The notes under the pieces were generated by a model. The model searched no databases. It was not told the DNA's origin and saw only the letters and a list, made by a program, of their open reading frames with translations. This document shows positions 11,114 through 35,546 of a stretch of 64,000 nt of DNA, in pieces. The stretch's first letter is position 1, and each line of letters opens with the position of its first letter. The stretch lies in contig JAHQWG010000048.1 of the NCBI GenBank assembly GCA_029856045.1, positions 1-64,000 on the forward strand, read 5' to 3'. The DNA is from Promethearchaeia archaeon (GTDB taxonomy: Archaea > Asgardarchaeota > Lokiarchaeia > Sigyniarchaeales > SOKP01). The translations under genes were made by a program, and so were the position numbers.

Positions 11114-13105
11114 GTGAATATTATTCTAAGGCAAGTTTATATTTATAAAGAGGGTGAATTGATATATTCCTGTCAGTTTGGCAAGGCATTAACGCAAGAA
11201 GATTTTACTAGTTTGTTCAAACAACTACGTAAAGATGCTATGGCTGCACCAAGTGATAAGATTGAATATCATGATTATTATAAATATAGAATCACATACG
11301 CTACAGAAAAAAAATTAGATTTAATGTTTCTATTTGTAACCGGTTTAACTGATTCATCCAAAGATATTAAAACTGAATTGCTTAGATGTAAAAGGGAATT
11401 TCTGAATCTTTTTGGGGATATAATCAAAACTGAATTTGATTCTAAAACTTTTGAAGTATTTGACCCAACAATTGATGTAATTCATAAAAATTTACGCCCC
11501 AAAATTTCACTCGTAGGATTTTCTGGTGTTGGAAAGACAACAATAACTAGATTAATTAGGGCTGAAGAAATACCGATGGAACATATCCCTACTATAACTG
11601 GAGATATAGCAACTATAAAAATAGGGAAATTACACTTTCACTTATGGGATTTTGCAGGACAAGAACAGTTTAGCTATTTATGGAATAACTTTGTTAAAGG
11701 TAGTGACGCAGTCCTTCTCATTACAGATTCAACTTTAGAAAATATAGAAAAAAGTAGATTTTTCCTCGATTTAATAAAAGATGAAGCACCCCACGCACAT
11801 ACTGCAATAATTGGAAACAAACAAGATCTTTCAGATGCTCTTCCTGTAACAGAAATTGAGAATATTTTAGGTTTAAAAACTTATAAAATGATTGCAAATA
11901 AAAATGAAAATCGGGATAAAATGATTACAATAATTGCTGATATCCTTGAAATGAGTTCAGAAGTAAGCCCCTTATTGAAACCATTGATTGAGAGAGATAA
12001 ATTATTACAAGACGCTGAATTATCACTTAATGAAGGCAATTTCCAAAATTCTTTAACCTTATTTGAAAAAATTGCGGATTTATGTCTTGATTTAGGTGAT
12101 GATAGTTTAGGAAATGAATTTAATGAAAAAGCCCAGAAGATTAAAGAAATTTTAGTAAAGATGGAAACAACACCAGTTGAGATTGTTAAACCAAAGGAAG
12201 AAGGAGTTCAACCTGCATCGGTAAAATCAACATCACCTGAACCCAAAGTTGCTCCTAAACCGGCGATTCCTAAACCACCAGTAATAATAATACCAGATGC
12301 AGCTGAACCTAAAGCTGCTCCTAAACCGGCGATTCCTAAATCACCAGCAATAAAAAAACCAAGTGTACCAGAACCTAAAGCTGCTCCAAAACCAGCGATT
12401 CCTAAACCACCAGCAATAAAAAAACCAAGTGTACCAGAACCTAAAGCTGCTCCAAAACCAGCGATTCCTAAACCACCAACAATAAAAAAAACAACTGTAC
12501 CTGAATCCAAAGTTGCTCCAAAACCAACTTCACCTAAATCACAATCCACACAGCCAAAATTAACAATTAATCTCGCAGATTTTAAAATTAAACCCCGTCC
12601 AACAAATATCTTATCCGCAAAAACCACCGGACCTAAACAATCATTAACGGTCAGTCCGTTTAGTGCTATAAAACAAGAAGAAACTCAACCAAAACCATAC
12701 ACTACTAAACCCAAATCACCATATCAACAACCCTTGCCTGATTCTAAGAGACCATCTCCGCCAATGCAAATACCACAGCCACCCATCCCACCGAAAGCTC
12801 CCCCTCAAACCTCTATTCCAAAGCCTATGACTCAACCAACACCAGCTAAAACCAAACCCCCAATAACAATCATAAGTGACCAAGGAGGTACACAAAAAGA
12901 TGAACTTGAAAAAACTTTAATGGATTTAAAGATTAAATTTGCAAATATTTCTAAAATGGAACTCGACCTTGATATGAAAGAAATTTCAGGGGAAATAACC
13001 TCAGAAGAGTTTAATGAGAAATCACAAAAAATTAAAGCCATAAAAGAGAATATTTCAAAACAAATTGAAGATATTCAGAATCTGTTAAATAGTTTTAGCG
13101 CATAG
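11114..13105 (+). CDS. Multidomain Arf-related GTPase: longin-like domain, G domain, MIT/TPR-like bundle, Pro-rich repeats, C-terminal helical hairpin
   Basis: G1 GFSGVGKTT, G2 PTIT, G3 WDFAGQE, Arf-type LWNNF, G4 GNKQD. N-terminal longin-type pattern. True start may be ATT at 11123. Confidence 0.88.
   Translation: MNIILRQVYIYKEGELIYSCQFGKALTQEDFTSLFKQLRKDAMAAPSDKIEYHDYYKYRITYATEKKLDLMFLFVTGLTDSSKDIKTELLRCKREFLNLFGDIIKTEFDSKTFEVFDPTIDVIHKNLRPKISLVGFSGVGKTTITRLIRAEEIPMEHIPTITGDIATIKIGKLHFHLWDFAGQEQFSYLWNNFVKGSDAVLLITDSTLENIEKSRFFLDLIKDEAPHAHTAIIGNKQDLSDALPVTEIENILGLKTYKMIANKNENRDKMITIIADILEMSSEVSPLLKPLIERDKLLQDAELSLNEGNFQNSLTLFEKIADLCLDLGDDSLGNEFNEKAQKIKEILVKMETTPVEIVKPKEEGVQPASVKSTSPEPKVAPKPAIPKPPVIIIPDAAEPKAAPKPAIPKSPAIKKPSVPEPKAAPKPAIPKPPAIKKPSVPEPKAAPKPAIPKPPTIKKTTVPESKVAPKPTSPKSQSTQPKLTINLADFKIKPRPTNILSAKTTGPKQSLTVSPFSAIKQEETQPKPYTTKPKSPYQQPLPDSKRPSPPMQIPQPPIPPKAPPQTSIPKPMTQPTPAKTKPPITIISDQGGTQKDELEKTLMDLKIKFANISKMELDLDMKEISGEITSEEFNEKSQKIKAIKENISKQIEDIQNLLNSFSA
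12239..12525 (+). repeat. 66-bp coding tandem repeat (EPKAAPKPAIPKPPAIKKPSVP), ~4.3 copies
   Basis: Units start at 12239, 12305, 12371, 12437 and 12503. Confidence 0.92.
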
Positions 13106-15764: not shown

Positions 15765-16301
15765 TTATTGGCCTGAACGAGATTTAATAATTCGTCGGGT
15801 CAATTCACCAAAAGCTTCCTCAACGTGCACTCCAGTCTTAGCAGATGTTTCAATGTAAATTGAATTCTCAGCCTCAGCAAATCTTTTTGCTTCCTCTCTG
15901 TCAATCACTTCCCCAACATCCTCAATTAAATCAACTTTATTACCTGCAAGAACAAATGGTATATGTTCTCCGGCAAATTGCCGAATCTCCGCTAACCATT
16001 TTCGAATTTCAGCATAAGTCTGTGCCCTTGAGAGATCGAAAACTAGAAGAACTCCCGCTGCACCCTTATAAAACGTGCTTCTAATGAACTCAAATCTTTG
16101 TTGCCCCCCAATATCCCATATGCTCAACGTTGCAATCTCGTCTCCATCATAATTAACATCCTTTGTTAAAATATCAACACCAACAGTTAGTTTATAGTTT
16201 GTAGCAAATCGATTCTTGATAAAACGCTGAACCAAGGAAGTTTTTCCTACTGCGGCAGCACCGCATAAAAGAACTTTAAGCTTATATGAAGACATAATCA
16301 A
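15765..16301 (-). CDS. Rab-like small GTPase
   Basis: GAAAVGKTS, YKLTVGVD, WDIGGQQRF, FYKGAAG, GNKVD, ETSAKTG; no C-terminal Cys. Confidence 0.95.
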   Translation of the reverse strand: MIMSSYKLKVLLCGAAAVGKTSLVQRFIKNRFATNYKLTVGVDILTKDVNYDGDEIATLSIWDIGGQQRFEFIRSTFYKGAAGVLLVFDLSRAQTYAEIRKWLAEIRQFAGEHIPFVLAGNKVDLIEDVGEVIDREEAKRFAEAENSIYIETSAKTGVHVEEAFGELTRRIIKSRSGQ

Positions 16302-20652: not shown

Positions 20653-23600
20653 ATGTTTGAGAAACCATCACCCCAGCAATTAGCCGAGGAGGCAGTTCGG
20701 CATTTAGATTTAGCCGAGAAATTTGAATCTCAGGAGAATTGGGCAAAAGCTATTGAAGAGTATTCAAAAGCTGTTGATTTATTAAAGCGGAGTGGATTAC
20801 TATCGCTTCATATTGATGATATAAATGAGCGAATTAGGCATTTGACTCAAATATCTCAACAAAACAAGGCTTTGCAGCGAAAGAAAGCCGAAGCTGAGTT
20901 TTCTGGTTTAAGGGATGAAGCATTTCACTTTTTGGATAAGGCAAAGTCTTTAGAAGTCAATGGTCGTTATCAAGAAGCCATATCTTGTTATTCTTCTGCT
21001 ATAAAGTTATTGGAACAGGCTAAATGGGATGAGAGTTTATTAGGACAAATCAAGTTAAAACTTGAAAAATTAGTGGGAATCTTCAAACAACAACAAATTA
21101 TGGCCCATCAAAGAGCATTACAGACTGAACAGGCACCTATTAAGGTTGAAAAGTCTTTTGGAGCTCCGGAAACCACAATTGTTCCTGCAGGACTTGATAA
21201 ACGAAGTAAATTACGAATGGAATTTGAGACTCAAAAACGAAAGGAAGAGGATATACAAAATAGTGCATTTGAAGCGATTGATATGGGTAAAAAGCTTTTA
21301 GAGGAAAAGAATTTCAACGTAGCAAAATCAAAATATCTCGAAGCTTTAGACCTATTGAGATCTATTGGATGGACTGATGAAAATTTGTCTTATTTGTATG
21401 GTGATATTGATTCCGTTGAAAGGCAGAGGGTAGCATTTGAAAAGGTGGAAGGTCAGAAAGTTGAACAGGCTGCAAGAGATACACCCCAACCAATTATTTC
21501 GGAGATATATCCTCAGAAAGAAATAGTTCCAGAAATTATGGACGTACAATCAAAAACAATAATGAAATATGAAGCGAAAAAAAGACGTGAGGATGAGGTT
21601 CAAAAGAAAGCATTTGAATTGATGGATGAGGGAGAGCGTTTAATAAAGGTCAAGGAATTTGATGAAGCCATGGAAAAGTATGGTATGGCTGGGCAGCTCT
21701 TAGAATCTATTGGGTGGGCTGATCAATTAGTTCATATTAATAAAATCATTGATAAGATAAATAAAGATAGAGTAAATTATAAGAAATTGCAGACACAGCA
21801 AATTAAAGCAAAAAAAGAAGCGGTTACTGCACCAGTCCCTGAAATCTCAGCAAAAGCAAAAGCAGATATTGAAGTTAAAAAGCAGAAAATAGTAGAGTTT
21901 GAAGAACGAAAAAAGCATGAAGAGAGTATTCAAAAAGAAGCTTTTAAGATGATTGATATTGCAAAACGATTTGAGCGAGATAAGCAATATGACGGGGCAA
22001 TCGAGAATTTTAATGGAGCAATTGATTTATTACAATCAATAGGGTGGACTGATTATGTTAAACCAATATACAAGTTCATCTCGGATATTAGAAGAAGACA
22101 AGAAAATGAACAGAAAGTACTCGAGGAGAAAAAATCTCGAGAGAAAGAATATTTAAAATTCCAAGAAATTATAAAAAAGCATGAAAAGATTCAAACGGAG
22201 CAGGGATTAGAGGGAATTTCCCTAAAACAGAAAGAGCTTGAAAAGACACGAGAAATAGATCACGCAAAAGAGAAAAAAGCTTTTAATGTAATAAATGAAG
22301 CCGATGAATTGGTAAGAAAAGGCAGTTATGAAAAGGCAATAAAAACTTATAAAAAGGCACATGATATTTTTAGAGAGATAGGTTGGGTTGAACAAATTGC
22401 GACAATTGAAACTACAATAAATACAGTTCAACATAAATATAGAGAATTTTTAAAAAATGACGAGAAAGCCACGGAATTAAAAGTTAAGCGTGCTGTAGAA
22501 GATGAAGAATTTCGAAAAACAATTGCCGAGCAGATTCGAAAAGAAAGGGAAAAGTTAGAGAAGAAAAAGATCGAAATTAGAGAATATGAAACAGAGATTG
22601 AATATCGGAAGAAAAGAAAGGTTGAAGCTTTTAAAATTTTAGATGAGGCAGAAGAATATACATTGCGTGGGGATTTTGATGTTGCCATAGAAAAATATTA
22701 CATGGCATCAATGATTTTTGTAGAAATTCAATGGACTGATGAATTATCACTCATTCAAAGTGTTATTAGAAATCTTGAAAATAAAAAGAAAGAAAGGAGG
22801 CTTTTAAGTCTAAAGGAGAGAGAAGATGGGTTAAAAAGAGAAAAGGAAACAAAAGAATTTCAAGCCAAAATTTCTGAACAATTAAGAGAGGAACGTGAGA
22901 AGTTAAGAGAAAAAGAGATTACAGTTAGAGAATATGAAAAAGAAGTGAAATATCGGGAAAAACAAAAGGATAAAGCATTTAAGATCTTAGATGATGCTCA
23001 AAAATTAACAATCAGTGGAGATTTTGATGAAGCTATAGAAAAATATGAAGTAGCTTCGATTATTTTTGCAGAAATTCAATGGGATGATGAGTTGGCACTT
23101 ATCCAGAATGCAATTCGAGATCTTGAGAATAATAAGAAGGAAAGAGAATTAAGGGAACAAAAGATTCGAGAAGAGTTATTGAAACGTGAGCAAGAAACAC
23201 AAGAATTTCAGAATATGATTGCTAAAGAATTAAGGATAGAGCGTGAAAAGTTAAGAGAAAGTCAAATTACGTTAAGAGAATATGAACAAGAAGTAGATTA
23301 TCGTGAGAATCGAAAAAATGAAGCTTTTGATATTTTAGATGCTGCAAAGATGTTAATAATGAGGGGGGATTTAGATGCTGCGATTGAAAAATATCATGAG
23401 GCATCAATTATTTTTGCTGAAATTCGGTGGACAGAAGAGTTGGCACTTATTCAAGGTGCAATACGCAAACTTGAGCAAAAAAAGAAAGAGAAAGAACTTT
23501 GGGAACAAATTGTAAGAGAGGAATCTATCAAAAAGGAACAAGAAGTAAGAGAATTTCAGCATGAAATTGCTTTAATCAAGAGTCAACAAGAAGAGAAAGT

Positions 23601-26600
23601 AAAATTTGCACAATATATTCAAGAGCAGAAAGAAATCTTATCAGAGCAGAAATTAAAGAAACAAGAAGAAGCATTGAAAATGCTTGAGACTTCATATGAA
23701 CATATAAGTAATGGAAATTTAGATGAGGCTATTAGAATTCATAAATCGGCAATAGAAATTCTTAATCAAATTGGTTGGAAAAGTCCTTATCTTAGGGTAA
23801 TTAAAGATACACTGGAGAATTTAAATAGACGTAAGATTGAAATCGTACAAAAGCTACAGCGCCAGAAGGAATTAACAGTTAAACATGAAGCTGAAGAAAG
23901 AGAATTTCAAGCGAGAATTACTCATAATATTGAGTTAGAAAAGAAAAAAATGTATGTTAAAAAAATCGCGACTCAGACTAAAGAACGATTACTTGCTTAT
24001 CGAGAAAAAGAGCGTATTGAAGCATTTGATGTAATGAATAAGGCGGAGATTTTAACAAAACGTGGAAATTTTGATGAATCTTTAGATCTTTATCGTCAAG
24101 CTGATATTATTTTAAGTGAAATTCAATTCCCCTCACATGCTGTTAAAGAAATGATACAGAAAATTAAATTGAAACAAAAGGAACAAAAAGAATTATTACA
24201 GAAAGAAAGAAAGATTCAAATTCATAGGCAATTAGAAGAGGCAACATTTCAAAAAGAAATTACTCGTCGGTTAGCATTTGAGAGAGAGAAGATGATAGTG
24301 AAGAAAATAGCTATCGAAACACGCGAGAAAATAGAAGTATATCGTGAGCAAAAACGAGAGGAAGCATTTAAGATATTAGATGAGGCAGAAGATTTAACAA
24401 AAACTGGAAATTTTGAGTTGGCAATTAATAGATATCGAAATGCTATGCTTCTTTTAAGTAAAATACAATATCCTGTTGATTCGATTCATGAAATGATAGG
24501 AAAGGTTCGTTTAAAAAAGATTGAACAAGAAGAAATTAAACGAAGAGAAATTGACCTAGCAGCCCGAAGAGAGATAGAATCAAGAGAATTTCGGGAGAAA
24601 ATTGCTTGGGAATTAAGAAGAGAGAGTGAGAGATTAGCAAGAAGGACAATTGCTCTCATAGAATATGAAGCTGAAGTAGAATATCGTGAAGATAGAAAAA
24701 AGGAAGCTTTTGATGTGTTAGATTCGGCAAAGTTATTAACACTTAGAGGTGATTTTGATGCATCTATTGAGAAATATCGGGAAGCTTCTATAATATTAGC
24801 GGAAATACAATGGACAAAAGAATTAACACTTATTCAAAATACAATTCGCCAACTGGAAAATAGAAAGAAAGAACGAGAACTTTGGGAACAACAATATCGA
24901 GAAGAAGCAATTAAACGAGAGATTGAAGAGAGAGAATTTCAAGAAAAAATTACTGAAATTTCAAGAAAGGAGCGTGAAAAATTAAGAGAAAAAGAGATTG
25001 CACTTAGGGAATATGAACAAGAAAAAGAATATCGAGAAAAAAGGAGGGATGAGGCATTTAAGATTTTGGATAAAGCAGAAAAATTTACTATTGCTGGAGA
25101 TTTTGATGTAGCTATAGAAAAATATCATGAGGCATCTATTATTTTCGCTGAAATACAATGGACAGAGGAGTTAGCACTTATTCAGAATGCAGTTCGTGAT
25201 CTTGAATATAAAAAGAAAGAACGGGTATTTTGGGAACAAAAAGCTCGAGAGAATGCAATTTGGAGGGAATTAGAAGCAAAGAAATTTCAAACAGATATTA
25301 CTGAGGCATTAAAAAAGGAGCATGAAAGATTAAAGGAAAAAGAGATTGCAATCAGAGAATATGAAAAAGAAGTAAAATATCGGGAGATGAGAAAAGAAGA
25401 AGCATTTCATATTTTAGATTCGGCACAAATTTTAACAATGAGGGGAAATTTTGATGAGGCTATTGAGAGATATCATGAAGCCTCAATAATTTTAGCAGAA
25501 ATTCAATGGATAGAAGAATTAAATCATATTCAAAATGCAATTAGTGAGCTTAATAAGAAAAAGAAAGAAAGAGAGCTTTGGCAACTAGAATTAAGAGAAG
25601 CAGCACTCAAACAAGAGCATGAAATAAGAGAATTTCAGCATAAAATTTCTATAATGAAAAAGAGTGAAGAAGATAAAGTAAAAATGGCACAATTTATTCA
25701 AGAACAACAAGGGGTTTTATCAGAACAACAATTAAAAAAGCAAAATGAAGCGTTGAAGATGCTTGAAGTTGCAGATACTCATATAAAAAGAGGTCAATTA
25801 GATGATGCTATTGAAATTTATAGGTTAGCAGTAGATATTTTTAATAAGATAGGATGGAAGGGTTCTTATCTTAAAGTAATACAAGACACATTTGATAATT
25901 TAACTCAACGAAAATTTGAAGTTGAACAAATAAAACAACATCAAATTCAATTAGCAGCTCAACGTGAAGCAGAAGAAAGAGAATTTCAAGCTAAAATTAC
26001 TCGAAGTATAGAATCCGAAAAGAAGAAAATGCTGGCAAAAGAAATTGCTATTCAAACTCAGGAACAAATAATTGCTCATCGAGAGAAAAGACGTAACGAA
26101 GCATTTGATAATATGGATAAAGCAGAGGAATTAACTAAAACTGGAAAATTTGATGAATCATTAACACTTTATCGCCAAGCTGATATAATATTAAGTGAAA
26201 TTCAATTTCCATCATATGCGGTAAGAGAAATGATACAGAAAATCAAGATAAAGCAAAAGGAACAAGTGGAATTACGTCAAAAAGAGAGAGAAATTCAAAT
26301 AAAAAGACAACAAGAAGAAGAAGCATTTCAAAGAGAAGTTGCTCGTCAGGTAGCGCTTGAGAGAGAGAAGATGAAAGTGAAGGAAATCGAAATTGAGACT
26401 CAAGAAAATGTAAGAGCATACCGAGAAAAACGTCGAAATGAAGTATTTAATATATTAGATGAGGCGGAACTCTTAACAAAAAGAGGTAACTTAGATTTAG
26501 CCATTGATACTTATCGTAAAGCCGCTCTTTATCTAACTGAAATTCAATATCCGGTTGATGCAATTTATGAAATGATTAGTAAACTTCGCATTAAAAAAAT

Positions 26601-29436
26601 AGAACAAGATCAAATGAAACAGCAAGAAATTGAAGCATCTACTCGAAGAGAGCTTGAATATAGACGTTTTCAGGAAGAGATTGCTCAAGCATTGAAAAGA
26701 GAAGAGGAAAGACTCAAAGAAAAAGAAATTAAGCTTAGAGAATATGAAAAAGAAAAGGAATATCGTGAAAAAATAAAGGATGAAGCATTCATTATTTTAG
26801 ATAAGGCAAAACAATTTACGGCTAGGGGAAATTTTGATGCCGGTATAGAGAAGTATCACGAGGCTTCAATAATTTTAGCTGAAATTCAATGGACAGAGGA
26901 ATTAAGAAATATTCAAAATGCCATTCGAGAACTTGAAAAGAGAAAGAAGGAAAGAGAACTTTGGGAGCAAAAAGCTCGAGAAGAAGCACTTAAGAGGGAA
27001 CAAGAAGCGAGAGAATTTCAATACAATATTTCGCAAATGAAAGCAATGAACGAAGAAAAAATAAAAATGGCTCAATTTATTCAAGAGCAACAAAAGGTTT
27101 TATCAGAGAGAAATTTTTTAAAGCAAAATGAAACGCTAAAAATGCTTGAAGTTGCAGATGCACATATAAAAAGAGGTAAATTAGATGATGCTATTGAAAT
27201 ATACATGTCTGCTATGAAAATTTTTAATGAAATAGGGTGGAAAGGACCATATTTAAAATTAATTCAAGATACACTAGATAATTTAAATAAGCGTAAATTC
27301 GAAATTGAACAAATTAAACAACAAAAAATTGAGTTAGAAGTTAAACGTGATGCAGAGGAGAGAGATTTTCAAGCAAAAATTGCACAAGGTATAGAGATAC
27401 AAAAACAAAAAATGCTAGCAAAAAAAATTGCTATTCAAACTCAAGAAGAAATATTTGCCCATCGTGAAAATAGGCGTAAAGAAGCATTTGATATTATAGA
27501 TAAAGCTGAAAAGATGACGAAAGAAGAAAATTTTGATGATGCGTTAAGGCTATACCGTCAAGCCGACATATTTTTGAGTGAAATTCAATTCCCATCAAAC
27601 ATTGTAAAAGAAATGATACCGAAAATTAAATTAAAACAAAGGGAACAAGAAGATTTACGGCAAAGAGAAAGAGAGATTCAAATTCAAAAACAATTAGAAG
27701 AGGAGGGATTTCAAAGGGAAATTGCTTATCATATAAAGCTTGAGAAAGAAAAAATGAGGTCAAAAAAGACTACACTTGAAGCACAAGAAATAATTAAAGA
27801 TTATCGCGAACAAAGAAGAGAAGAAGCATTTAGAGTGCTAGAAGAGGCAGAACAATTAACCAACTCCGGAAAATATGAATTGGCAATTGGTACTTATAGA
27901 AATGCCATGTTAATTCTTAGCGAGATTCAATATCCTACCGATTCAATTAATGAGATGATTAAAAAAGTTCAGAATAAAAAATTAGAGCAAGAACATCTTA
28001 AACATATAGAAATGGAAGCAGTGCTCCAAAGAGAGCAAGAAGAAAAGTACCTTGAAGAAGAGATTGCCCAAAAAGTTCAGTTAGAACAAGGAAGAATGAT
28101 GGAGAAGTTAAAAGCTATTGTATCACGTGAAAAAATACAAGTACGTTTTGAACAACGAAGAGAAGAAGCATTCAAGGTATTAGAAGAAGCAGAACAATTA
28201 ATTAAAACTGATAAATTTGATGAAGCAATTGAAACATACCGAAAAGCTTCATTAATTCTAAGTGAAATTCAATATCCCTTAGAGTCAATTAATGAGATGA
28301 TCAGAAAATTACAAATGAGAAAATCCGAACAAGCACAGATTATTCAACAAGAAAAAGAAGCACGACTCCAGAGAGAAAGTGAAGAAGCCGAACTTAGAAG
28401 AATTATTGAAGAGCGTCAGCGTCAAGAAGAGGAGATGAAAAGAGCAAAATATTTGGCTCTAAAGCAAAGGGAGGAATTAATTAAAAAAGTAGAAAGTCGT
28501 AGAGAAGTTGCATTTTCCCTATTGGAGAATGCTGATAAATTTTTAAAGCAATTCCCTCCTGATTTTGATAAATCAATTGAGTTGTATTTAGAAGCAAGAA
28601 ATGTTCTTTTAGAGATAAATTGGGAGCCAGAAATTGCGAATTTAGACGCTATGATCAGAAGTTTAAGAGAAGAAAAACAAAAATTTATCATTCAACAAAA
28701 ACAAGAAGAAGAGGCTCGAATTCGTGCTGCTGAAGAATATGAGAAATTTAACCAAGAAATTCTAAGAAAAAAGTTAGAAGTTCAAAGAGTTCAAGAAGTA
28801 CAACGGATGAAACTTGAAGCATTTAAATTTGAACAAGAACAACGAGAAAAACTTCAACAAGAGGGTTTTAATCTTCTTGATGATGCGAAAAAATCAGTTT
28901 TAATGCATCAGTTTAATTTTGCTTACGAGCAATTTGATCAGGCTATTGAAAAATTTAAGAGGATTGGTTGGTTTGAACAGATAAAATATATTGAAAAGGA
29001 AATAGAGACCACTAAGAAATTAGAAGAAAATGCAATAAAAGCACAAGAAGAAGTTAAAAGAGCTCAAGAGGCACTCTTAAAACAAAAAGGATTGGAAGAC
29101 CAGCGGCGAATAGAAGAAGAGACAATAAAAATACATTCAGTCAAGGAAATTACAGCAATTTCAGATGACATTATCAAATCGTTAAGACAACAACGATTAG
29201 AACAAGAAAGTACTCAAGTTGTTTCTAAAGAACAAATTAAATCAGATGCTGCAAGTTTTGCAAAAGAGTTAACAAAAATGATTAAAATCAAACAAGATTT
29301 GATGGCTGAAATTGCAAAAGCTGAAGAAGACGAGAAAGAAAAAACAACAGAGAAAGAAAAACAAAAAACTAAGGAAGAACTTAAAGAACTACATAAGTGG
29401 ATAAAAGATGCTGCCAAAAAATCAAAGAAAAAATAA
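20653..29436 (+). CDS. Giant (2927 aa) all-helical repeat protein: 25 MIT/TPR-like units with E/K/R/Q-rich spacers
   Basis: Recurrent EAF.ILD.A....G.FD.AIE.Y..A..I..EI(Q/G)(W/Y/F) every ~115-117 aa; no signal peptide or TM segment. Confidence 0.9.
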   Translation: MFEKPSPQQLAEEAVRHLDLAEKFESQENWAKAIEEYSKAVDLLKRSGLLSLHIDDINERIRHLTQISQQNKALQRKKAEAEFSGLRDEAFHFLDKAKSLEVNGRYQEAISCYSSAIKLLEQAKWDESLLGQIKLKLEKLVGIFKQQQIMAHQRALQTEQAPIKVEKSFGAPETTIVPAGLDKRSKLRMEFETQKRKEEDIQNSAFEAIDMGKKLLEEKNFNVAKSKYLEALDLLRSIGWTDENLSYLYGDIDSVERQRVAFEKVEGQKVEQAARDTPQPIISEIYPQKEIVPEIMDVQSKTIMKYEAKKRREDEVQKKAFELMDEGERLIKVKEFDEAMEKYGMAGQLLESIGWADQLVHINKIIDKINKDRVNYKKLQTQQIKAKKEAVTAPVPEISAKAKADIEVKKQKIVEFEERKKHEESIQKEAFKMIDIAKRFERDKQYDGAIENFNGAIDLLQSIGWTDYVKPIYKFISDIRRRQENEQKVLEEKKSREKEYLKFQEIIKKHEKIQTEQGLEGISLKQKELEKTREIDHAKEKKAFNVINEADELVRKGSYEKAIKTYKKAHDIFREIGWVEQIATIETTINTVQHKYREFLKNDEKATELKVKRAVEDEEFRKTIAEQIRKEREKLEKKKIEIREYETEIEYRKKRKVEAFKILDEAEEYTLRGDFDVAIEKYYMASMIFVEIQWTDELSLIQSVIRNLENKKKERRLLSLKEREDGLKREKETKEFQAKISEQLREEREKLREKEITVREYEKEVKYREKQKDKAFKILDDAQKLTISGDFDEAIEKYEVASIIFAEIQWDDELALIQNAIRDLENNKKERELREQKIREELLKREQETQEFQNMIAKELRIEREKLRESQITLREYEQEVDYRENRKNEAFDILDAAKMLIMRGDLDAAIEKYHEASIIFAEIRWTEELALIQGAIRKLEQKKKEKELWEQIVREESIKKEQEVREFQHEIALIKSQQEEKVKFAQYIQEQKEILSEQKLKKQEEALKMLETSYEHISNGNLDEAIRIHKSAIEILNQIGWKSPYLRVIKDTLENLNRRKIEIVQKLQRQKELTVKHEAEEREFQARITHNIELEKKKMYVKKIATQTKERLLAYREKERIEAFDVMNKAEILTKRGNFDESLDLYRQADIILSEIQFPSHAVKEMIQKIKLKQKEQKELLQKERKIQIHRQLEEATFQKEITRRLAFEREKMIVKKIAIETREKIEVYREQKREEAFKILDEAEDLTKTGNFELAINRYRNAMLLLSKIQYPVDSIHEMIGKVRLKKIEQEEIKRREIDLAARREIESREFREKIAWELRRESERLARRTIALIEYEAEVEYREDRKKEAFDVLDSAKLLTLRGDFDASIEKYREASIILAEIQWTKELTLIQNTIRQLENRKKERELWEQQYREEAIKREIEEREFQEKITEISRKEREKLREKEIALREYEQEKEYREKRRDEAFKILDKAEKFTIAGDFDVAIEKYHEASIIFAEIQWTEELALIQNAVRDLEYKKKERVFWEQKARENAIWRELEAKKFQTDITEALKKEHERLKEKEIAIREYEKEVKYREMRKEEAFHILDSAQILTMRGNFDEAIERYHEASIILAEIQWIEELNHIQNAISELNKKKKERELWQLELREAALKQEHEIREFQHKISIMKKSEEDKVKMAQFIQEQQGVLSEQQLKKQNEALKMLEVADTHIKRGQLDDAIEIYRLAVDIFNKIGWKGSYLKVIQDTFDNLTQRKFEVEQIKQHQIQLAAQREAEEREFQAKITRSIESEKKKMLAKEIAIQTQEQIIAHREKRRNEAFDNMDKAEELTKTGKFDESLTLYRQADIILSEIQFPSYAVREMIQKIKIKQKEQVELRQKEREIQIKRQQEEEAFQREVARQVALEREKMKVKEIEIETQENVRAYREKRRNEVFNILDEAELLTKRGNLDLAIDTYRKAALYLTEIQYPVDAIYEMISKLRIKKIEQDQMKQQEIEASTRRELEYRRFQEEIAQALKREEERLKEKEIKLREYEKEKEYREKIKDEAFIILDKAKQFTARGNFDAGIEKYHEASIILAEIQWTEELRNIQNAIRELEKRKKERELWEQKAREEALKREQEAREFQYNISQMKAMNEEKIKMAQFIQEQQKVLSERNFLKQNETLKMLEVADAHIKRGKLDDAIEIYMSAMKIFNEIGWKGPYLKLIQDTLDNLNKRKFEIEQIKQQKIELEVKRDAEERDFQAKIAQGIEIQKQKMLAKKIAIQTQEEIFAHRENRRKEAFDIIDKAEKMTKEENFDDALRLYRQADIFLSEIQFPSNIVKEMIPKIKLKQREQEDLRQREREIQIQKQLEEEGFQREIAYHIKLEKEKMRSKKTTLEAQEIIKDYREQRREEAFRVLEEAEQLTNSGKYELAIGTYRNAMLILSEIQYPTDSINEMIKKVQNKKLEQEHLKHIEMEAVLQREQEEKYLEEEIAQKVQLEQGRMMEKLKAIVSREKIQVRFEQRREEAFKVLEEAEQLIKTDKFDEAIETYRKASLILSEIQYPLESINEMIRKLQMRKSEQAQIIQQEKEARLQRESEEAELRRIIEERQRQEEEMKRAKYLALKQREELIKKVESRREVAFSLLENADKFLKQFPPDFDKSIELYLEARNVLLEINWEPEIANLDAMIRSLREEKQKFIIQQKQEEEARIRAAEEYEKFNQEILRKKLEVQRVQEVQRMKLEAFKFEQEQREKLQQEGFNLLDDAKKSVLMHQFNFAYEQFDQAIEKFKRIGWFEQIKYIEKEIETTKKLEENAIKAQEEVKRAQEALLKQKGLEDQRRIEEETIKIHSVKEITAISDDIIKSLRQQRLEQESTQVVSKEQIKSDAASFAKELTKMIKIKQDLMAEIAKAEEDEKEKTTEKEKQKTKEELKELHKWIKDAAKKSKKK
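22620..28200 (+). repeat. Higher-order repeat in the giant protein: (AAABCD)x2 + ABCD + D
   Basis: Unit types are defined by EIQWTEEL (A), IGWK.PYL (B), SEIQFPS (C) and IQYP (D). B units lie at ~23671, ~25750 and ~27133 (spacings 2079 and 1383 nt). Confidence 0.85.
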
Positions 29437-31149: not shown

Positions 31150-32742
31150 ATGGAACCAAGGGAAAAAAGGGAATTTTCCTTAGAAGAAAGGAAGATGTAT
31201 GCTCGTCAGCAGCTCGTTGAAGGCTGGGATCAAGAGACTATAAAGAATAGTTGTGCTTTGATTATTGGAGTGGGAGCTCTCGGGTGCGAGATTGCTAAGG
31301 ATTTAGCTTTAATGGGTATAGGAAAATTAATTTTAGTTGATATGGATAAAATTGAAACCTCAAATCTCTCAAGACAAATGTTATTTCATGCAGGAGATGA
31401 GGGGAGAACAAAAGTTGAGGTTGCTGCAGAGCGTTTAAAATTGATGGCTCCGTTTCTCGAAGTTGAGTATTATTTTGATAAATTACAAAATCTTCCAATG
31501 AAGGTGTATGAAGAATCGGATGTTATTATTGCTGCATTAGATAACGTTAGGGCAAGAATGGATTTAAACAAGATTGCTTTAAGATTAAAAAAACCAATGG
31601 TGGAGTCTGGTACGGTAGGATTTGAAGGTCATGTTCAAAACATTATCCCAAAAGGCTCAAATATAAAATTTCATAAGAGAGAAAAAGTTATAGATGAAAT
31701 AGTGCAAGAAAAATTATGGAATTTATCAGAAGAAGAATATACTGAATATTTTGCTGCTCAAGAAAGTATAGAAAAGCTTGAGGAGCGAATAGTTCTATTA
31801 AAATCTCAATTTATGGAGCCTGTTGTTGAAAAAGTACGAAAACAAGTTGAAAATGAGTTTGATGAAAAATATTCTGAAGATTATCTTGATCAAACAGCTT
31901 GTTATAGGTGCCTAGTTCCTATTCCACCACCTGATGATAAATTAATTGCAGCATGCACATTAAAGGGTATTCCGAGAAATAGAAATCATTGTGTTTTAAA
32001 AGCAGAGTTAAATTTTGAAAAGAAACATGGACGGATGCCAGATTTGGATAATGATGAGGATATATACAAATTAATGGAATTATCTCAAGAGGAATTAAAA
32101 TTATTACGAGAACGAGTTTTTAAGGAAAACGTCTCTGATGAGCAGTTATCAACATTATCAGAAGAAGAAATTCGAGAGTGGAAAATCAATATTCAAGATA
32201 CATTCGGTCAAGATTATGTATTTGAAGATATGGAAAATATTTTAGGAAATAAAATCGCTGCCGTTCAGACAGTTAGTTCAATTATCGCAAGTATTCAGTC
32301 CCAAGAGGCATTAAAATTAATATTTAGAGCAAAGGGAAGAGATATTGGGCCCCCCATGGATCCTCCGTATGTTAATTATAGCGGAATTTATGGAATATTC
32401 GAACAAGTCCCAGTGTTTAAGAGAAAAGATTGCATTGATTGTGGGGATATTGAAGGAGAGGAAAATGTTAGTATTGTGGTTCCATTTAATTCAAAGGTTA
32501 AAGATATTTTTAATGCACTAGATGTTTCTGGTTATAAATTCGATACCGAAAAGTGGATGATCACAAATTCAATGAATAAGGAGATTCTTTGGCACCCCTC
32601 AATTCCCACATTTAAAGATCCTGAAGCTCTATTACAAAGCTTAAAAATAACGAGTAATGACGTTGTAACACTCACACCTTTAAGTAAAGATGTAAGTAAA
32701 TTAGAAATAAAGAAATATAACGTAATCGTTTCCTATTTATAA
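31150..32742 (+). CDS. Ubiquitin-activating enzyme E1-like (Uba2/Uba3 type)
   Basis: YARQ, IGVGALGCE, DMDKIETSNLSRQ, ALDNVRAR, Zn pairs TACYRC and DCIDC, catalytic ACTLKGIPRNRNHC, C-terminal ubiquitin-fold-like domain. Confidence 0.92.
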   Translation: MEPREKREFSLEERKMYARQQLVEGWDQETIKNSCALIIGVGALGCEIAKDLALMGIGKLILVDMDKIETSNLSRQMLFHAGDEGRTKVEVAAERLKLMAPFLEVEYYFDKLQNLPMKVYEESDVIIAALDNVRARMDLNKIALRLKKPMVESGTVGFEGHVQNIIPKGSNIKFHKREKVIDEIVQEKLWNLSEEEYTEYFAAQESIEKLEERIVLLKSQFMEPVVEKVRKQVENEFDEKYSEDYLDQTACYRCLVPIPPPDDKLIAACTLKGIPRNRNHCVLKAELNFEKKHGRMPDLDNDEDIYKLMELSQEELKLLRERVFKENVSDEQLSTLSEEEIREWKINIQDTFGQDYVFEDMENILGNKIAAVQTVSSIIASIQSQEALKLIFRAKGRDIGPPMDPPYVNYSGIYGIFEQVPVFKRKDCIDCGDIEGEENVSIVVPFNSKVKDIFNALDVSGYKFDTEKWMITNSMNKEILWHPSIPTFKDPEALLQSLKITSNDVVTLTPLSKDVSKLEIKKYNVIVSYL

Positions 32743-33491: not shown

Positions 33492-34001
33492 CTAATCCAT
33501 TGCGTATTTTTTCGTCCAGTTCTCTGCTTTCTTATCAAATTTCGATTTTTGTTTAAAATATTGCTCTCCTGCTTCATGATTTAAAGGATCGCCGGGATTA
33601 AAAAATGGTGGTTCCACATGCATCATTCCCTTCAATGCTTCGACAATATTTGTTAATGTTTTAGAAGGAGTCCACCCCGAAGCCCCAGTAGAGGCATCAA
33701 CCTTACCGACTAGATCGGGATTAATAAGATCAAGACAAATATTCAATTTTCCTGGTGGAATTGAAGAGTCGATATTAGGATGCCACATTAAAGTATGAGC
33801 ATATACATATGGAGGTGCAAAAGGATAGTTCTCGGGCATTTTTATCTCGAATAAAAATTTACCTCCTGAATACGGAATTCCTGGCTTTCCTATTATTGAA
33901 AGCCTAAGGTGGTCTATTGATCTTCCCCAAGGTTCGATAATAACGAATTGATTATCTTTAAATGCCTCAAGCGCCTCTGCATAATCAGTTTCTTCTCTAA
34001 T
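33492..34001 (-). CDS. Ubiquitin-conjugating enzyme E2 (UBC), ~169 aa
   Basis: IIGKPGIPYSGGKFLFEIKMPENYPFAPP, WHPNI, catalytic ICLD, WTP, DPLNHEAG, WTKKYA. The tracked ORF (33839) lacks the first 54 codons; the frame opens at ATT 34001. Confidence 0.94.
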   Translation of the reverse strand: MREETDYAEALEAFKDNQFVIIEPWGRSIDHLRLSIIGKPGIPYSGGKFLFEIKMPENYPFAPPYVYAHTLMWHPNIDSSIPPGKLNICLDLINPDLVGKVDASTGASGWTPSKTLTNIVEALKGMMHVEPPFFNPGDPLNHEAGEQYFKQKSKFDKKAENWTKKYAMD

Positions 34002-34139: not shown

Positions 34140-35546
34140 TCTAAATTCGGACCCTTACGCGAGTTAAATTGTCATTATTCTTTATAGAATAATAATTGTG
34201 AATCTAACTCAAAAAATTCGAATATTTCCCTCAAAGAATCAAAAACTGATTCTGTGGGATTTGTCGGAAAAATGTCGATTAATATATAATTTTGCGTTAG
34301 CTGAAAGAATAGAAAATTGGAATAAAAACAAATATAAGCCAAAAGACGACAAAAAATATATATCTTATTTAGAGCAACAAAATAAATTAACTTTACTTAA
34401 AAAGAAATATCCTGAATATAAATGGGTTTATTCTAAAGTTTTACAAATGATATTGAAAAGACTCAACTCTGATTATAAATCGTTTTTTACGAAATGGATA
34501 AATGGAGATAAACAAGCTCGACCACCTAAATTTAAATCAAAAAAAAGATTTACAACAATCTGTTATAATCAGAGTGGTTTCAAATTAGAAAAGAAAGTGA
34601 TACAATTTTCGCATAAACACCCTTCAAAAATTCCATTAATATTTTCTCTTAAATATCCTTATTGTGCTGTTGAAATTGTTAAACAGGTGGAAATTTTTAA
34701 AGATTTCCAAAATCGATGGTTTATTTCTATTACATATGAAGTTCAAGCACTAAAATACAAAGATAACGGGCTATATCAAGCAATTGATTTAGGAGTTTCA
34801 AATATTGTATCTGCGGTGAATTTGCACTCTAAATTTATTCAAATTAAAAATAAAAGAGCAGATCTCTATTGGAAAAAGAAAATAGAAAGCATTCAATCAA
34901 GGCGAGACCACTGTAAAAAATATAGTAAAAAGTGGAGAAAATATCATTACAAATTCAGGAAGATGCATCAAAAGTGTGCTTATCAAATGCGTGATTTTCA
35001 ACATAAAATTTCAAAACATATTGTGACACATACCAAAGCAAATACAATAATTGTCGGAGACCTAAATGTGAAAGAGATGGCTAAAAAGAAAAAATCTATG
35101 GGAAATGCTCAAAAAAATAAAGCTAACAAAACTTTAAACTATTCTGTTAACAATACGGGATCGTTGGGTCGTTTTGTCGAATTCTTAATTTACAAGGCGA
35201 GACTTGTAGGGAAAAGAGTTATAAGAATTGACGAATCGTATACTACTCAACGATGTTCAATTTGTGGAAAGCTTAAAAAAAGAAATCTTTCCGAAAGAAT
35301 TATTCAATGCGATTGTGGAAATTATCTTGATCGTGATCTTAATTCTGTGATCAACATTATGATTAAATTTTTGAAACATAAGCATTGTTACGTATTCCTA
35401 TCGCATCAACCCTCCTTGAACGAGGAATCCTTTCTACAAAAAAAGGATTTGCTACGATACACAGCCCCATCCGTAGTAAAAGTGATGGCGGACTCGTAGT
35501 GATACTAAAAAATTAGAAATATTTACTAATTTTTCAGTAAGTTCAA
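34140..35546 (+). mobile_element. IS200/IS605-family non-autonomous element (tnpB only; IS1341-like)
   Basis: tnpB with no tnpA. Right-end hairpin 35503-35539 is followed by TTCAA (35542-35546). An 8-bp inverted repeat ATTATTCT/AGAATAAT precedes the start. Left end is approximate. Confidence 0.72.
34198..35499 (+). CDS. tnpB: RNA-guided endonuclease TnpB
   Basis: N-terminal HTH (KIRIFP..CRLIYNFAL), AIDLG, IVGDLN, IDESYTTQRCSICG..CDCG..DRDLNS. Confidence 0.95.
   Translation: MNLTQKIRIFPSKNQKLILWDLSEKCRLIYNFALAERIENWNKNKYKPKDDKKYISYLEQQNKLTLLKKKYPEYKWVYSKVLQMILKRLNSDYKSFFTKWINGDKQARPPKFKSKKRFTTICYNQSGFKLEKKVIQFSHKHPSKIPLIFSLKYPYCAVEIVKQVEIFKDFQNRWFISITYEVQALKYKDNGLYQAIDLGVSNIVSAVNLHSKFIQIKNKRADLYWKKKIESIQSRRDHCKKYSKKWRKYHYKFRKMHQKCAYQMRDFQHKISKHIVTHTKANTIIVGDLNVKEMAKKKKSMGNAQKNKANKTLNYSVNNTGSLGRFVEFLIYKARLVGKRVIRIDESYTTQRCSICGKLKKRNLSERIIQCDCGNYLDRDLNSVINIMIKFLKHKHCYVFLSHQPSLNEESFLQKKDLLRYTAPSVVKVMADS

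Follow-up and report, generated by a model that had tools for sequence, protein, structure and literature searches.

A giant periodic rod protein of Lokiarchaeia with a possible link to actin filaments

Introduction

The 64,000-nucleotide stretch of lokiarchaeal DNA analyzed here (hereinafter the window) contains a single open frame for a protein of 2,927 aa with 25 three-helix bundles, and the question that this locus raises is whether such an array is a passive spacer, a multivalent docking platform or a scaffold that matches a periodic partner. The original prediction favored a periodic scaffold or ruler for ESCRT-III or the cytoskeleton. Literature searches, which included six accessions or locus tags, found no published description of this architecture, and an ESCRT survey, in its accessible parts, does not mention the family.

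Repeat architecture of the giant protein

The gene (hereinafter family A) comprises the following regions:

20653-29436, plus strand: giant rod protein, family A, 25 three-helix bundles (reading frame, unit HMM and orthologs)
20671-21105, plus strand: N-terminal head, units 1-2, with a short 36-residue link between them
21106-22257, plus strand: units 3-5, with the links that connect units 2 through 6
22258-29046, plus strand: invariant core, units 6-25, with 19 successive 77-residue links, estimated at ~11 nm per unit and ~212 nm in total
22606-24684, plus strand: six-unit super-repeat, copy 1, units 7-12, unit types A, A, B, C, D, E
24685-26763, plus strand: six-unit super-repeat, copy 2, units 13-18
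26764-28146, plus strand: four-unit block, units 19-22, unit types B, C, D, E
29047-29436, plus strand: conserved charged tail of ~126 aa

An HMM of the repeat unit detects exactly 25 units (60-90 bits each), the number given in the original prediction, and the period of ~116 aa proposed there holds as well: the first five periods are 76, 115, 115, 110 and 113 aa, and those that follow are 114-118 aa. From unit 5 onward, the spacers are rich in E/K/R/Q (58%) and nearly devoid of Pro and Gly (0.7%), as had been claimed, and in addition contain 27% large hydrophobic residues. The protein was also said to be cytosolic and to lack enzymatic motifs, and both statements agree with the present results: there is no transmembrane or signal segment (maximum 19-residue hydropathy 0.95), and the Pfam matches of the 2,927-aa protein are limited to MIT and TPR, with no enzyme domain and no known actin-binding domain detected.

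Unit 1 has its own SG(Y/F)L..R/H motif that is conserved in orthologs. The links from 2-3 to 4-5 contain proline, differ in length among orthologs and are probably flexible; link 5-6 is 74 residues long. Higher-order repeats are apparent at an offset of 2,079 nt (six units) and of 1,383 nt (four units), and three clades of unit subtypes have 94-100% bootstrap support. The tail terminates in an amphipathic motif with the consensus D/E-I-x-x-M-I-K and a lysine run. Orthologs of 2,927 aa with the same 25 units are present in two other species of the genus, and the differences from the one of these that was compared are distributed 169/133/354 by codon position, with no indels. Because the orthologs are of equal length and the differences, in this one comparison, are biased toward third positions, an assembly artefact is excluded and the gene can be considered real.

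Predicted structure and dimensions

In the AF2 model of one unit, helices 1 and 2 are followed by a helix of 72 residues (pLDDT 93), and the model of three units contains unbroken helices of 94 and 93 residues (H43-136 and H159-251; pLDDT 94.8, pTM 0.52), which extend from helix 3 of one bundle through the spacer into helix 1 of the next bundle. The bundle itself (hereinafter the knob) occupies ~62 of the 116 aa of a unit in these models. Covariation analysis of 648 repeats (Meff ~500) recovered the intra-bundle contacts and the i+3/i+4 spacer pairs independently of AF2. Forced fits to compact TPR proteins gave rmsd values of 101-103 Å for units 1 and 3 and 46-50 Å for adjacent units, which translate into roughly 11 nm per unit; the arithmetic estimate of the unit length is 10.8-11.6 nm.

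In these models, the protein is an extended, periodic, non-solenoid rod with three-helix knobs on continuous helices. A TPR solenoid and a compact globule, the two outcomes that would have contradicted the original proposal, were both rejected because the three-unit model is extended and the forced-fit rmsd is about 100 Å. The AlphaFold predictions of single and tandem units that had been suggested as a check thus gave an extended shape, and the span of possibly hundreds of nm envisaged at that time is matched by estimates that put the invariant core at ~212 nm and the whole protein at no more than ~280 nm. Complex prediction for two copies of the three-unit fragment returned a score of 0.00, which gives no verdict and is counted neither for nor against self-pairing.

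Distribution and paralogs

A profile of the N-terminal region matches 61 of the 68 genomes of the same taxonomic family, usually with one strong ortholog, and weakly matches all 7 genomes of a second family, whereas a unit profile matches 14 of 14 genomes of this second family and none of the 94 genomes from other Asgard families searched, so that within this set the rod family is not found outside Lokiarchaeia. A search for related loci that started from a single protein recovered members of the genus only. The database names of the homologs are mostly Promethearchaeota/Lokiarchaeota, in agreement with the lokiarchaeal origin assumed in the original prediction. Some homologs are labelled Hodarchaeota, Thorarchaeota or Odinarchaeota by NCBI; since at least one of these comes from a genome that GTDB places in the same taxonomic family as the source genome, such labels are no sign of a wider range.

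A second paralog (family B) is widespread and, in the source genome, is a protein of 1,562 aa with 14 units. Two cultured species have both families, namely L. ossiferum (UYP48113.1 for A, UYP47749.1 for B) and P. syntrophicum (QEE16137.1 for A, QEE15784.2 for B). The L. ossiferum homologs are distant from the 2,927-aa protein (22-28% identity), and the family A protein of this species has 7 units, with only two measurable 77-residue links. The number of units is largely genus-specific (7, 9, 10, 14, 17, 18, 20 or 25), with the head and the tail fixed and the middle expanding across orthologs, and differs between A and B (25 vs 14 in the source genome, 7 vs 18 in L. ossiferum).

Several peculiarities of individual loci were observed. 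Some of the 14 units of the family B protein in the source genome (L001:7439-13604; G000:C15:134438-140603) have a PY-type insertion, and its gene belongs to a same-strand trio that is conserved in two taxonomic families, with a small winged-helix-like gene upstream and, downstream, a ~106-aa member of an archaeal family without a name, weakly PC4-like by structure; a UPF0182-like gene is divergent from this trio. In L. ossiferum and H. repetitus (L068:6824-13648; L042:3434-10687), family B contains near-identical runs of 127-aa repeats in which the 77-residue link is kept, and this near-identity implies a very recent expansion. Other family B members (L052:2768-11035; L053:2240-9763) show alternating periods of 116 and 88 aa, with long and short links in turn. 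In two genomes, family A is split into two ORFs (365+1242 aa and 1489+703 aa; L022:6333-11265 and L058:3164-9963), which may reflect a frameshift, a stop codon or an assembly error.

The invariant link between bundles

Link length, measured from the isoleucine of helix 3 to the alanine of helix 1 in the next unit, is exactly 77 residues in 19 of the 19 core links of the 2,927-aa protein and in 235 links of 40 proteins that represent several families and both paralogs. In a larger set, again including both paralogs and several families of Lokiarchaeia, 81% of the 868 proline-free links are 77 residues long and a further 9% are 74, compared with 77 residues in 3.7% of the 243 links that contain proline. 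The length is fixed despite a median spacer identity of only ~19%; the variation of the period between 114 and 119 aa is located in the bundle loops, and the 127-aa units of paralog B keep the 77-residue link (in one unit, counted by hand). We also rejected a model in which links vary in steps of one full helical turn, since no phase concentration was found at 3.5-3.67.

The spacers show strong i+3/i+4 pairing of opposite charges. Offsets 31, 35 and 53 of the repeat are hydrophobic in 91, 90 and 82% of the repeats (weighted), respectively, and form, together with offset 46, a conserved hydrophobic patch of the continuous helix. These conserved positions lie on two faces, with no continuous heptad stripe, and Fourier analysis of the spacers found no dominant heptad. 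Spacers of the ER/K single alpha-helix type are present in myosin VI/X, caldesmon and INCENP; the rod spacers are likewise E/K/R/Q-rich and proline-free, with i+3/i+4 pairs of opposite charge, but differ in having ~27% large hydrophobics at conserved positions and a strictly invariant length. The original description of the spacers as similar to a single alpha-helix or a coiled coil is accordingly retained for the salt-bridged sequence without Pro and Gly and abandoned insofar as it implies a generic linker.

Indels in the spacer would be tolerable if it were passive, and we therefore infer a partner that reads the knobs and the mid-spacer patches in register. Judged by the sequences, the rod would thus engage in register-dependent binding with a period of ~11 nm rather than act as a passive spacer.

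Comparison with known repeat systems

The knob was originally described as an MIT/TPR-like motif of three helices, and the AF2 models do contain a three-helix bundle, the fold of which ties among MIT, TPR and designed bundles. The MIT domain of archaeal Vps4 (2w2u) is the tied top structural match (Z 10.6, rmsd 1.2 Å over 62 residues), with tied Z scores for SRP68, AIP, CHIP and designed bundles. MIT is also the commonest Pfam match (14 of the 25 units at E<=0.1), although a partial one, the best stretch covering profile positions 2-37 of 66; taken singly, only unit 2 reaches the MIT cut-off (30.2 bits). Comparison with the Asgard Vps4 MIT profile using hhalign gives an alignment of 33 columns confined to helices 1-2, and the Vps4-type helix-3 motif Y-x2-R-A-K/E is found in none of the 1,550 units, as against 25 of the 26 Asgard Vps4 MIT domains. 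Units also match TPR_1/2/11/12, and consensus TPRs are the best sequence matches in the PDB. No PDB structure was matched by Foldseek at E<=0.001, and searches of the Atlas returned nothing related by structure or features. Thus, the knob is MIT/TPR-like and is not a member of the MIT family.

The MIT domains (PF04212: Vps4/CdvC, katanin p60, MITD1, calpain-7, Vta1, ULK3) share with the knob the up-down-up three-helix bundle (Z 9-10.6) and the pattern A-x6-A-x6-G-x-F/Y-x2-A-x3-Y-x2-A in helices 1-2. The rod knob departs from MIT in its shorter helix 2, in an (I/L)-G/Q-W turn that is conserved, and in the usual lack of Asp at the MIT position; it is present in 7-25 copies instead of 1-2, has no ATPase attached and has its helices 1 and 3 at the two ends of 94-residue helices. 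The TPR proteins (clan CL0020) have in common with it the helix A/B signature G-x-Y/F-x2-A-x3-Y-x2-A, but the rod unit consists of one hairpin and a capping helix every 114-118 aa, not of contiguous 34-aa repeats, and does not form a solenoid.

Among actin-associated rods, spectrin, alpha-actinin and dystrophin consist of tandem three-helix bundles of ~106-122 aa, with helix C continuing into the next helix A and ~5 nm per repeat. Successive bundles are similarly joined by a continuous helix in the lokiarchaeal rod, and a pairing of its two paralogs is conceivable, but its bundle comprises only ~62 aa, with ~55 residues of lone helix between bundles and ~11 nm per unit; Pfam detects no spectrin or CH domain in the 2,927-aa protein. 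Nebulin, tropomyosin and titin are periodic giants with super-repeats, which they share with the rod along with lineage-variable length and, possibly, register with the actin helix. The rod differs from them in its proposed period of four subunits rather than one per strand subunit and in that its actin binding is only proposed, and it shows no similarity to them in sequence or fold (no nebulin-repeat or tropomyosin homology by Pfam or PDB sequence searches). The architecture, three-helix knobs on indel-free 94-residue helices, thus fits no named family tested, and the literature, PDB and Atlas searches bear out the earlier statement that no described protein with this architecture could be recognized; the proposed function has eukaryotic analogs.

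Gene neighborhood and genomic context

Two neighbors of the rod gene are relevant for functional inference:

15765-16301, minus strand: Rab-like small GTPase of 178 aa, upstream and divergent, with the deepest conservation among the neighbors
31150-32742, plus strand: eukaryote-like E1 (ThiF and weak E1_4HB), downstream

L. ossiferum and P. syntrophicum carry the same Rab-like GTPase gene upstream of family A (67-69% identity), and across two taxonomic families it is kept there while most other neighbors change, which suggests a functional link between the rod and the GTPase. The E1 gene is located beside the rod gene in the family of the source genome and in one other family, and is not found beside it in the family of the cultured species; it follows the rod gene in 18 loci, on the same strand with a single exception, and in 11 loci an E2 gene lies 2-4 genes beyond E1. 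No ESCRT genes were detected near the rod in the ~45 loci read, and the two ESCRT-III genes and one Vps4 gene of the source genome are all on other contigs. This genome also encodes ~38 GTPase-like proteins, three actins and two tubulin-family matches; both of the latter are FtsZ-type, which makes a microtubule partner disfavored.

Other genes observed in the course of this analysis include, in the window, an E2 gene at 33492-34001 that is called as only 115 aa (orthologs are ~169 aa), a TnpB/IS605 OrfB gene at 34198-35499, and, conserved upstream of the rod gene within the family, a 663-aa protein (11114-13105) that has an Arf/Roc-like GTPase domain and, at the C-terminus, a weak CdvA-like match. 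Outside the window, an N-terminal MIT-like domain and a C-terminal zinc ribbon are combined in a 209-aa protein (L037:1465-2094), whose neighbor on the opposite strand is a long ORF for a coiled coil (L037:1-1161; both in G000:C47:72083-74176). Both ESCRT-III proteins (L040:142-789; L041:1408-2067) end in a similar amphipathic helix of the L/I-x2-L-x2-E-L type.

Enrichment of rod homologs with Lokiactin

A Lokiactin co-immunoprecipitation (co-IP) dataset for Ca. L. ossiferum has been reported (bioRxiv 10.1101/2025.11.30.690169, Supplementary Table 2; journal version PMC13716822). The locus tags were mapped to accessions via the tag offsets in Table 3 of that paper and exact monoisotopic masses, which identifies GNAMCCOK_04434 as UYP48113.1 (A; 124.58 kDa, exact mass match) and GNAMCCOK_04068 as UYP47749.1 (B; 270.5 kDa). 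Both homologs are present in the proteome and hence expressed, and both are enriched with Lokiactin, A with log2 2.04 (adjusted P 0.017, 21 peptides) and B with log2 2.00 (adjusted P 0.0015, 82 peptides, 325 spectra) (bioRxiv 10.1101/2025.11.30.690169). This is similar to the enrichment of gelsolins (log2 2.08-3.97) and above that of the Arf protein highlighted by the authors (1.34) in the same dataset (bioRxiv 10.1101/2025.11.30.690169). By our own count of non-contaminant rows, A and B rank 35 and 38 among ~569 tested proteins, the latter figure being derived from the adjusted P values. The controls, one SMC and one ESCRT-III only, are not significantly enriched (0.88, P 0.39 and 0.01, P 0.95, respectively), and two other ESCRT-III candidates and two more SMC-like proteins of L. 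ossiferum are not among the co-IP rows listed. Thus, the cytoskeletal part of the original prediction gains support from the ~4-fold enrichment of both L. ossiferum homologs in a cross-linked co-IP.

Because the co-IP employed formaldehyde cross-linking, enrichment indicates that the proteins lie close to Lokiactin and need not mean direct binding; roughly 100 proteins, abundant ones included, exceed log2 1. The B homolog is also present in the IgG controls, the control values for the A homolog are imputed, and the two are not independent evidence if the paralogs bind each other. The rod homologs are not mentioned in the accessible text of the paper (bioRxiv 10.1101/2025.11.30.690169; PMC13716822). 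Four further tags, GNAMCCOK_00333, 02751, 04250 and 04085, are enriched above Lokiactin itself and fall outside the authors' identifier table (Supplementary Table 2).

Proposed function and alternative explanations

The rise of Lokiactin is 27.9 Å per subunit (PMC9834061), so that four subunits span 11.16 nm axially, which falls inside the 10.8-11.6 nm estimated for one rod unit. A path along the long-pitch strand at a radius of 3.5-5 nm would require 11.6-12.0 nm per unit, at or above the upper end of the estimate, and the period match is therefore compatible with such binding and suggestive, not discriminating. Taken together with this match, the link invariance and the co-IP enrichment make lateral binding to Lokiactin the most likely reading. 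Specifically, we tentatively propose, at a little under even chances, that the protein is a cytosolic extended rod with an axial period of ~11 nm that lies lengthwise on Lokiactin filaments as a stabilizer, bundler or length-setting scaffold and would be a functional analog, not a homolog, of nebulin or tropomyosin. In this scheme, the invariant links would keep knobs and patches in register with the periodic polymer, with one rod unit per four Lokiactin subunits; lineage-specific block duplication (7-25 units) would set the span covered, ~70-250 nm; and the conserved head and tail might anchor the rod, possibly via the neighboring Rab-like GTPase. Fold, helix continuity and link invariance are computational results, and the expression and Lokiactin co-purification of homologs are published, whereas we infer from these that the rod binds Lokiactin directly, in a 1:4 register, and acts as a ruler. 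A more specific version, which we consider possible but on balance doubtful, is a hard-wired four-subunit register on Lokiactin in which the repeat number sets filament span or bundling, that is, an independently evolved analog of nebulin, tropomyosin and spectrin, assembled from MIT/TPR-like knobs, with two paralogs, in cultured Lokiarchaea. An argument against the actin-based reading is the phyletic pattern: Lokiactin is reported in virtually all Asgard genomes (PMC13716822), and the rod family is found only in Lokiarchaeia among the genomes searched.

Apart from Lokiactin, the invariant register could reflect pairing of the rods themselves, either as a homodimer or, in the manner of spectrin, as a heterodimer or filament of A and B; knobs or mid-spacer patches of one chain would then dock on the other, and the actin link would be indirect. 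This arrangement is compatible with a rod on actin. Both paralogs keep the 77-residue link and the hydrophobics at offsets 31 and 35, co-occur in the genomes examined for both and are nearly equally enriched in the co-IP, and covariation shows a slight excess at offsets 7 and 11. Nevertheless, no antiparallel or spacer-bundle covariation rises clearly above background in the 648 repeats, the conserved hydrophobics lie on two faces instead of a heptad stripe, and the unit numbers of A and B within a genome are far apart, so that such pairing appears unlikely, if still worth serious consideration. A GTPase-regulated long-range tether or spacer, akin to golgins or EEA1, that bridges membranes or complexes, with each unit binding an elongated ~11-nm partner or the Rab-like GTPase, would account for the conservation of this GTPase upstream of family A in two taxonomic families, and the GTPase is abundant in L. 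ossiferum (GNAMCCOK_04432, identified by tag offset); a middle that can expand between fixed ends is a typical feature of tethers. The GTPase is, however, on the opposite strand with 0-5 genes between, is one of ~38 GTPase-like genes in the genome and has no row among the co-IP rows listed, and a tether does not need an exact linker length; we regard this role as distinctly unlikely.

The ESCRT-III scaffold of the original prediction, in which multiple MIT domains would bind MIM tails and set the spacing or organization of ESCRT-III polymers, draws on the predominance of MIT among the Pfam matches, the tied top match to 2w2u and the presence of two ESCRT-III proteins and Vps4 in the genome. 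MIM1 binds between MIT helices 2 and 3 (PMC7240154), but the resemblance to Asgard Vps4 MIT extends over helices 1-2 only, the helix-3 motif is missing from all units, the fold ties with unrelated bundles, none of the loci read contains ESCRT genes, and ESCRT-III is not co-enriched with the rods in the actin co-IP; this part of the prediction is not supported, and we consider it improbable. Very improbable is a scaffold of a ubiquitin-like system co-expressed with the downstream E1 and nearby E2: recurrent as this gene order is, the E1/E2 arrangement is confined to one taxonomic family, with E1 inverted in the second and missing from the loci of the cultured species' family, an opposite-strand subtilase often lies between the rod gene and E1, and the ~11-nm period is left unexplained.

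Implications

Profilins and gelsolins are considered the main regulators of Asgard actin (PMC13716822), and thin protrusions contain long filaments, at times in bundles, as seen by cryo-ET (PMC9834061); we found no account of a giant protein that binds the sides of Asgard actin filaments or defines their length. Should the partner be something other than actin, the architecture described here would still match none of the named families tested, and the proposal can be tested in cultured species with the available accessions (UYP48113.1, UYP47749.1, QEE16137.1 and QEE15784.2). A rod that is conserved throughout Lokiarchaeia, with a fixed period of ~11 nm, is a concrete candidate for a giant that may bind along Asgard actin filaments or define their length.
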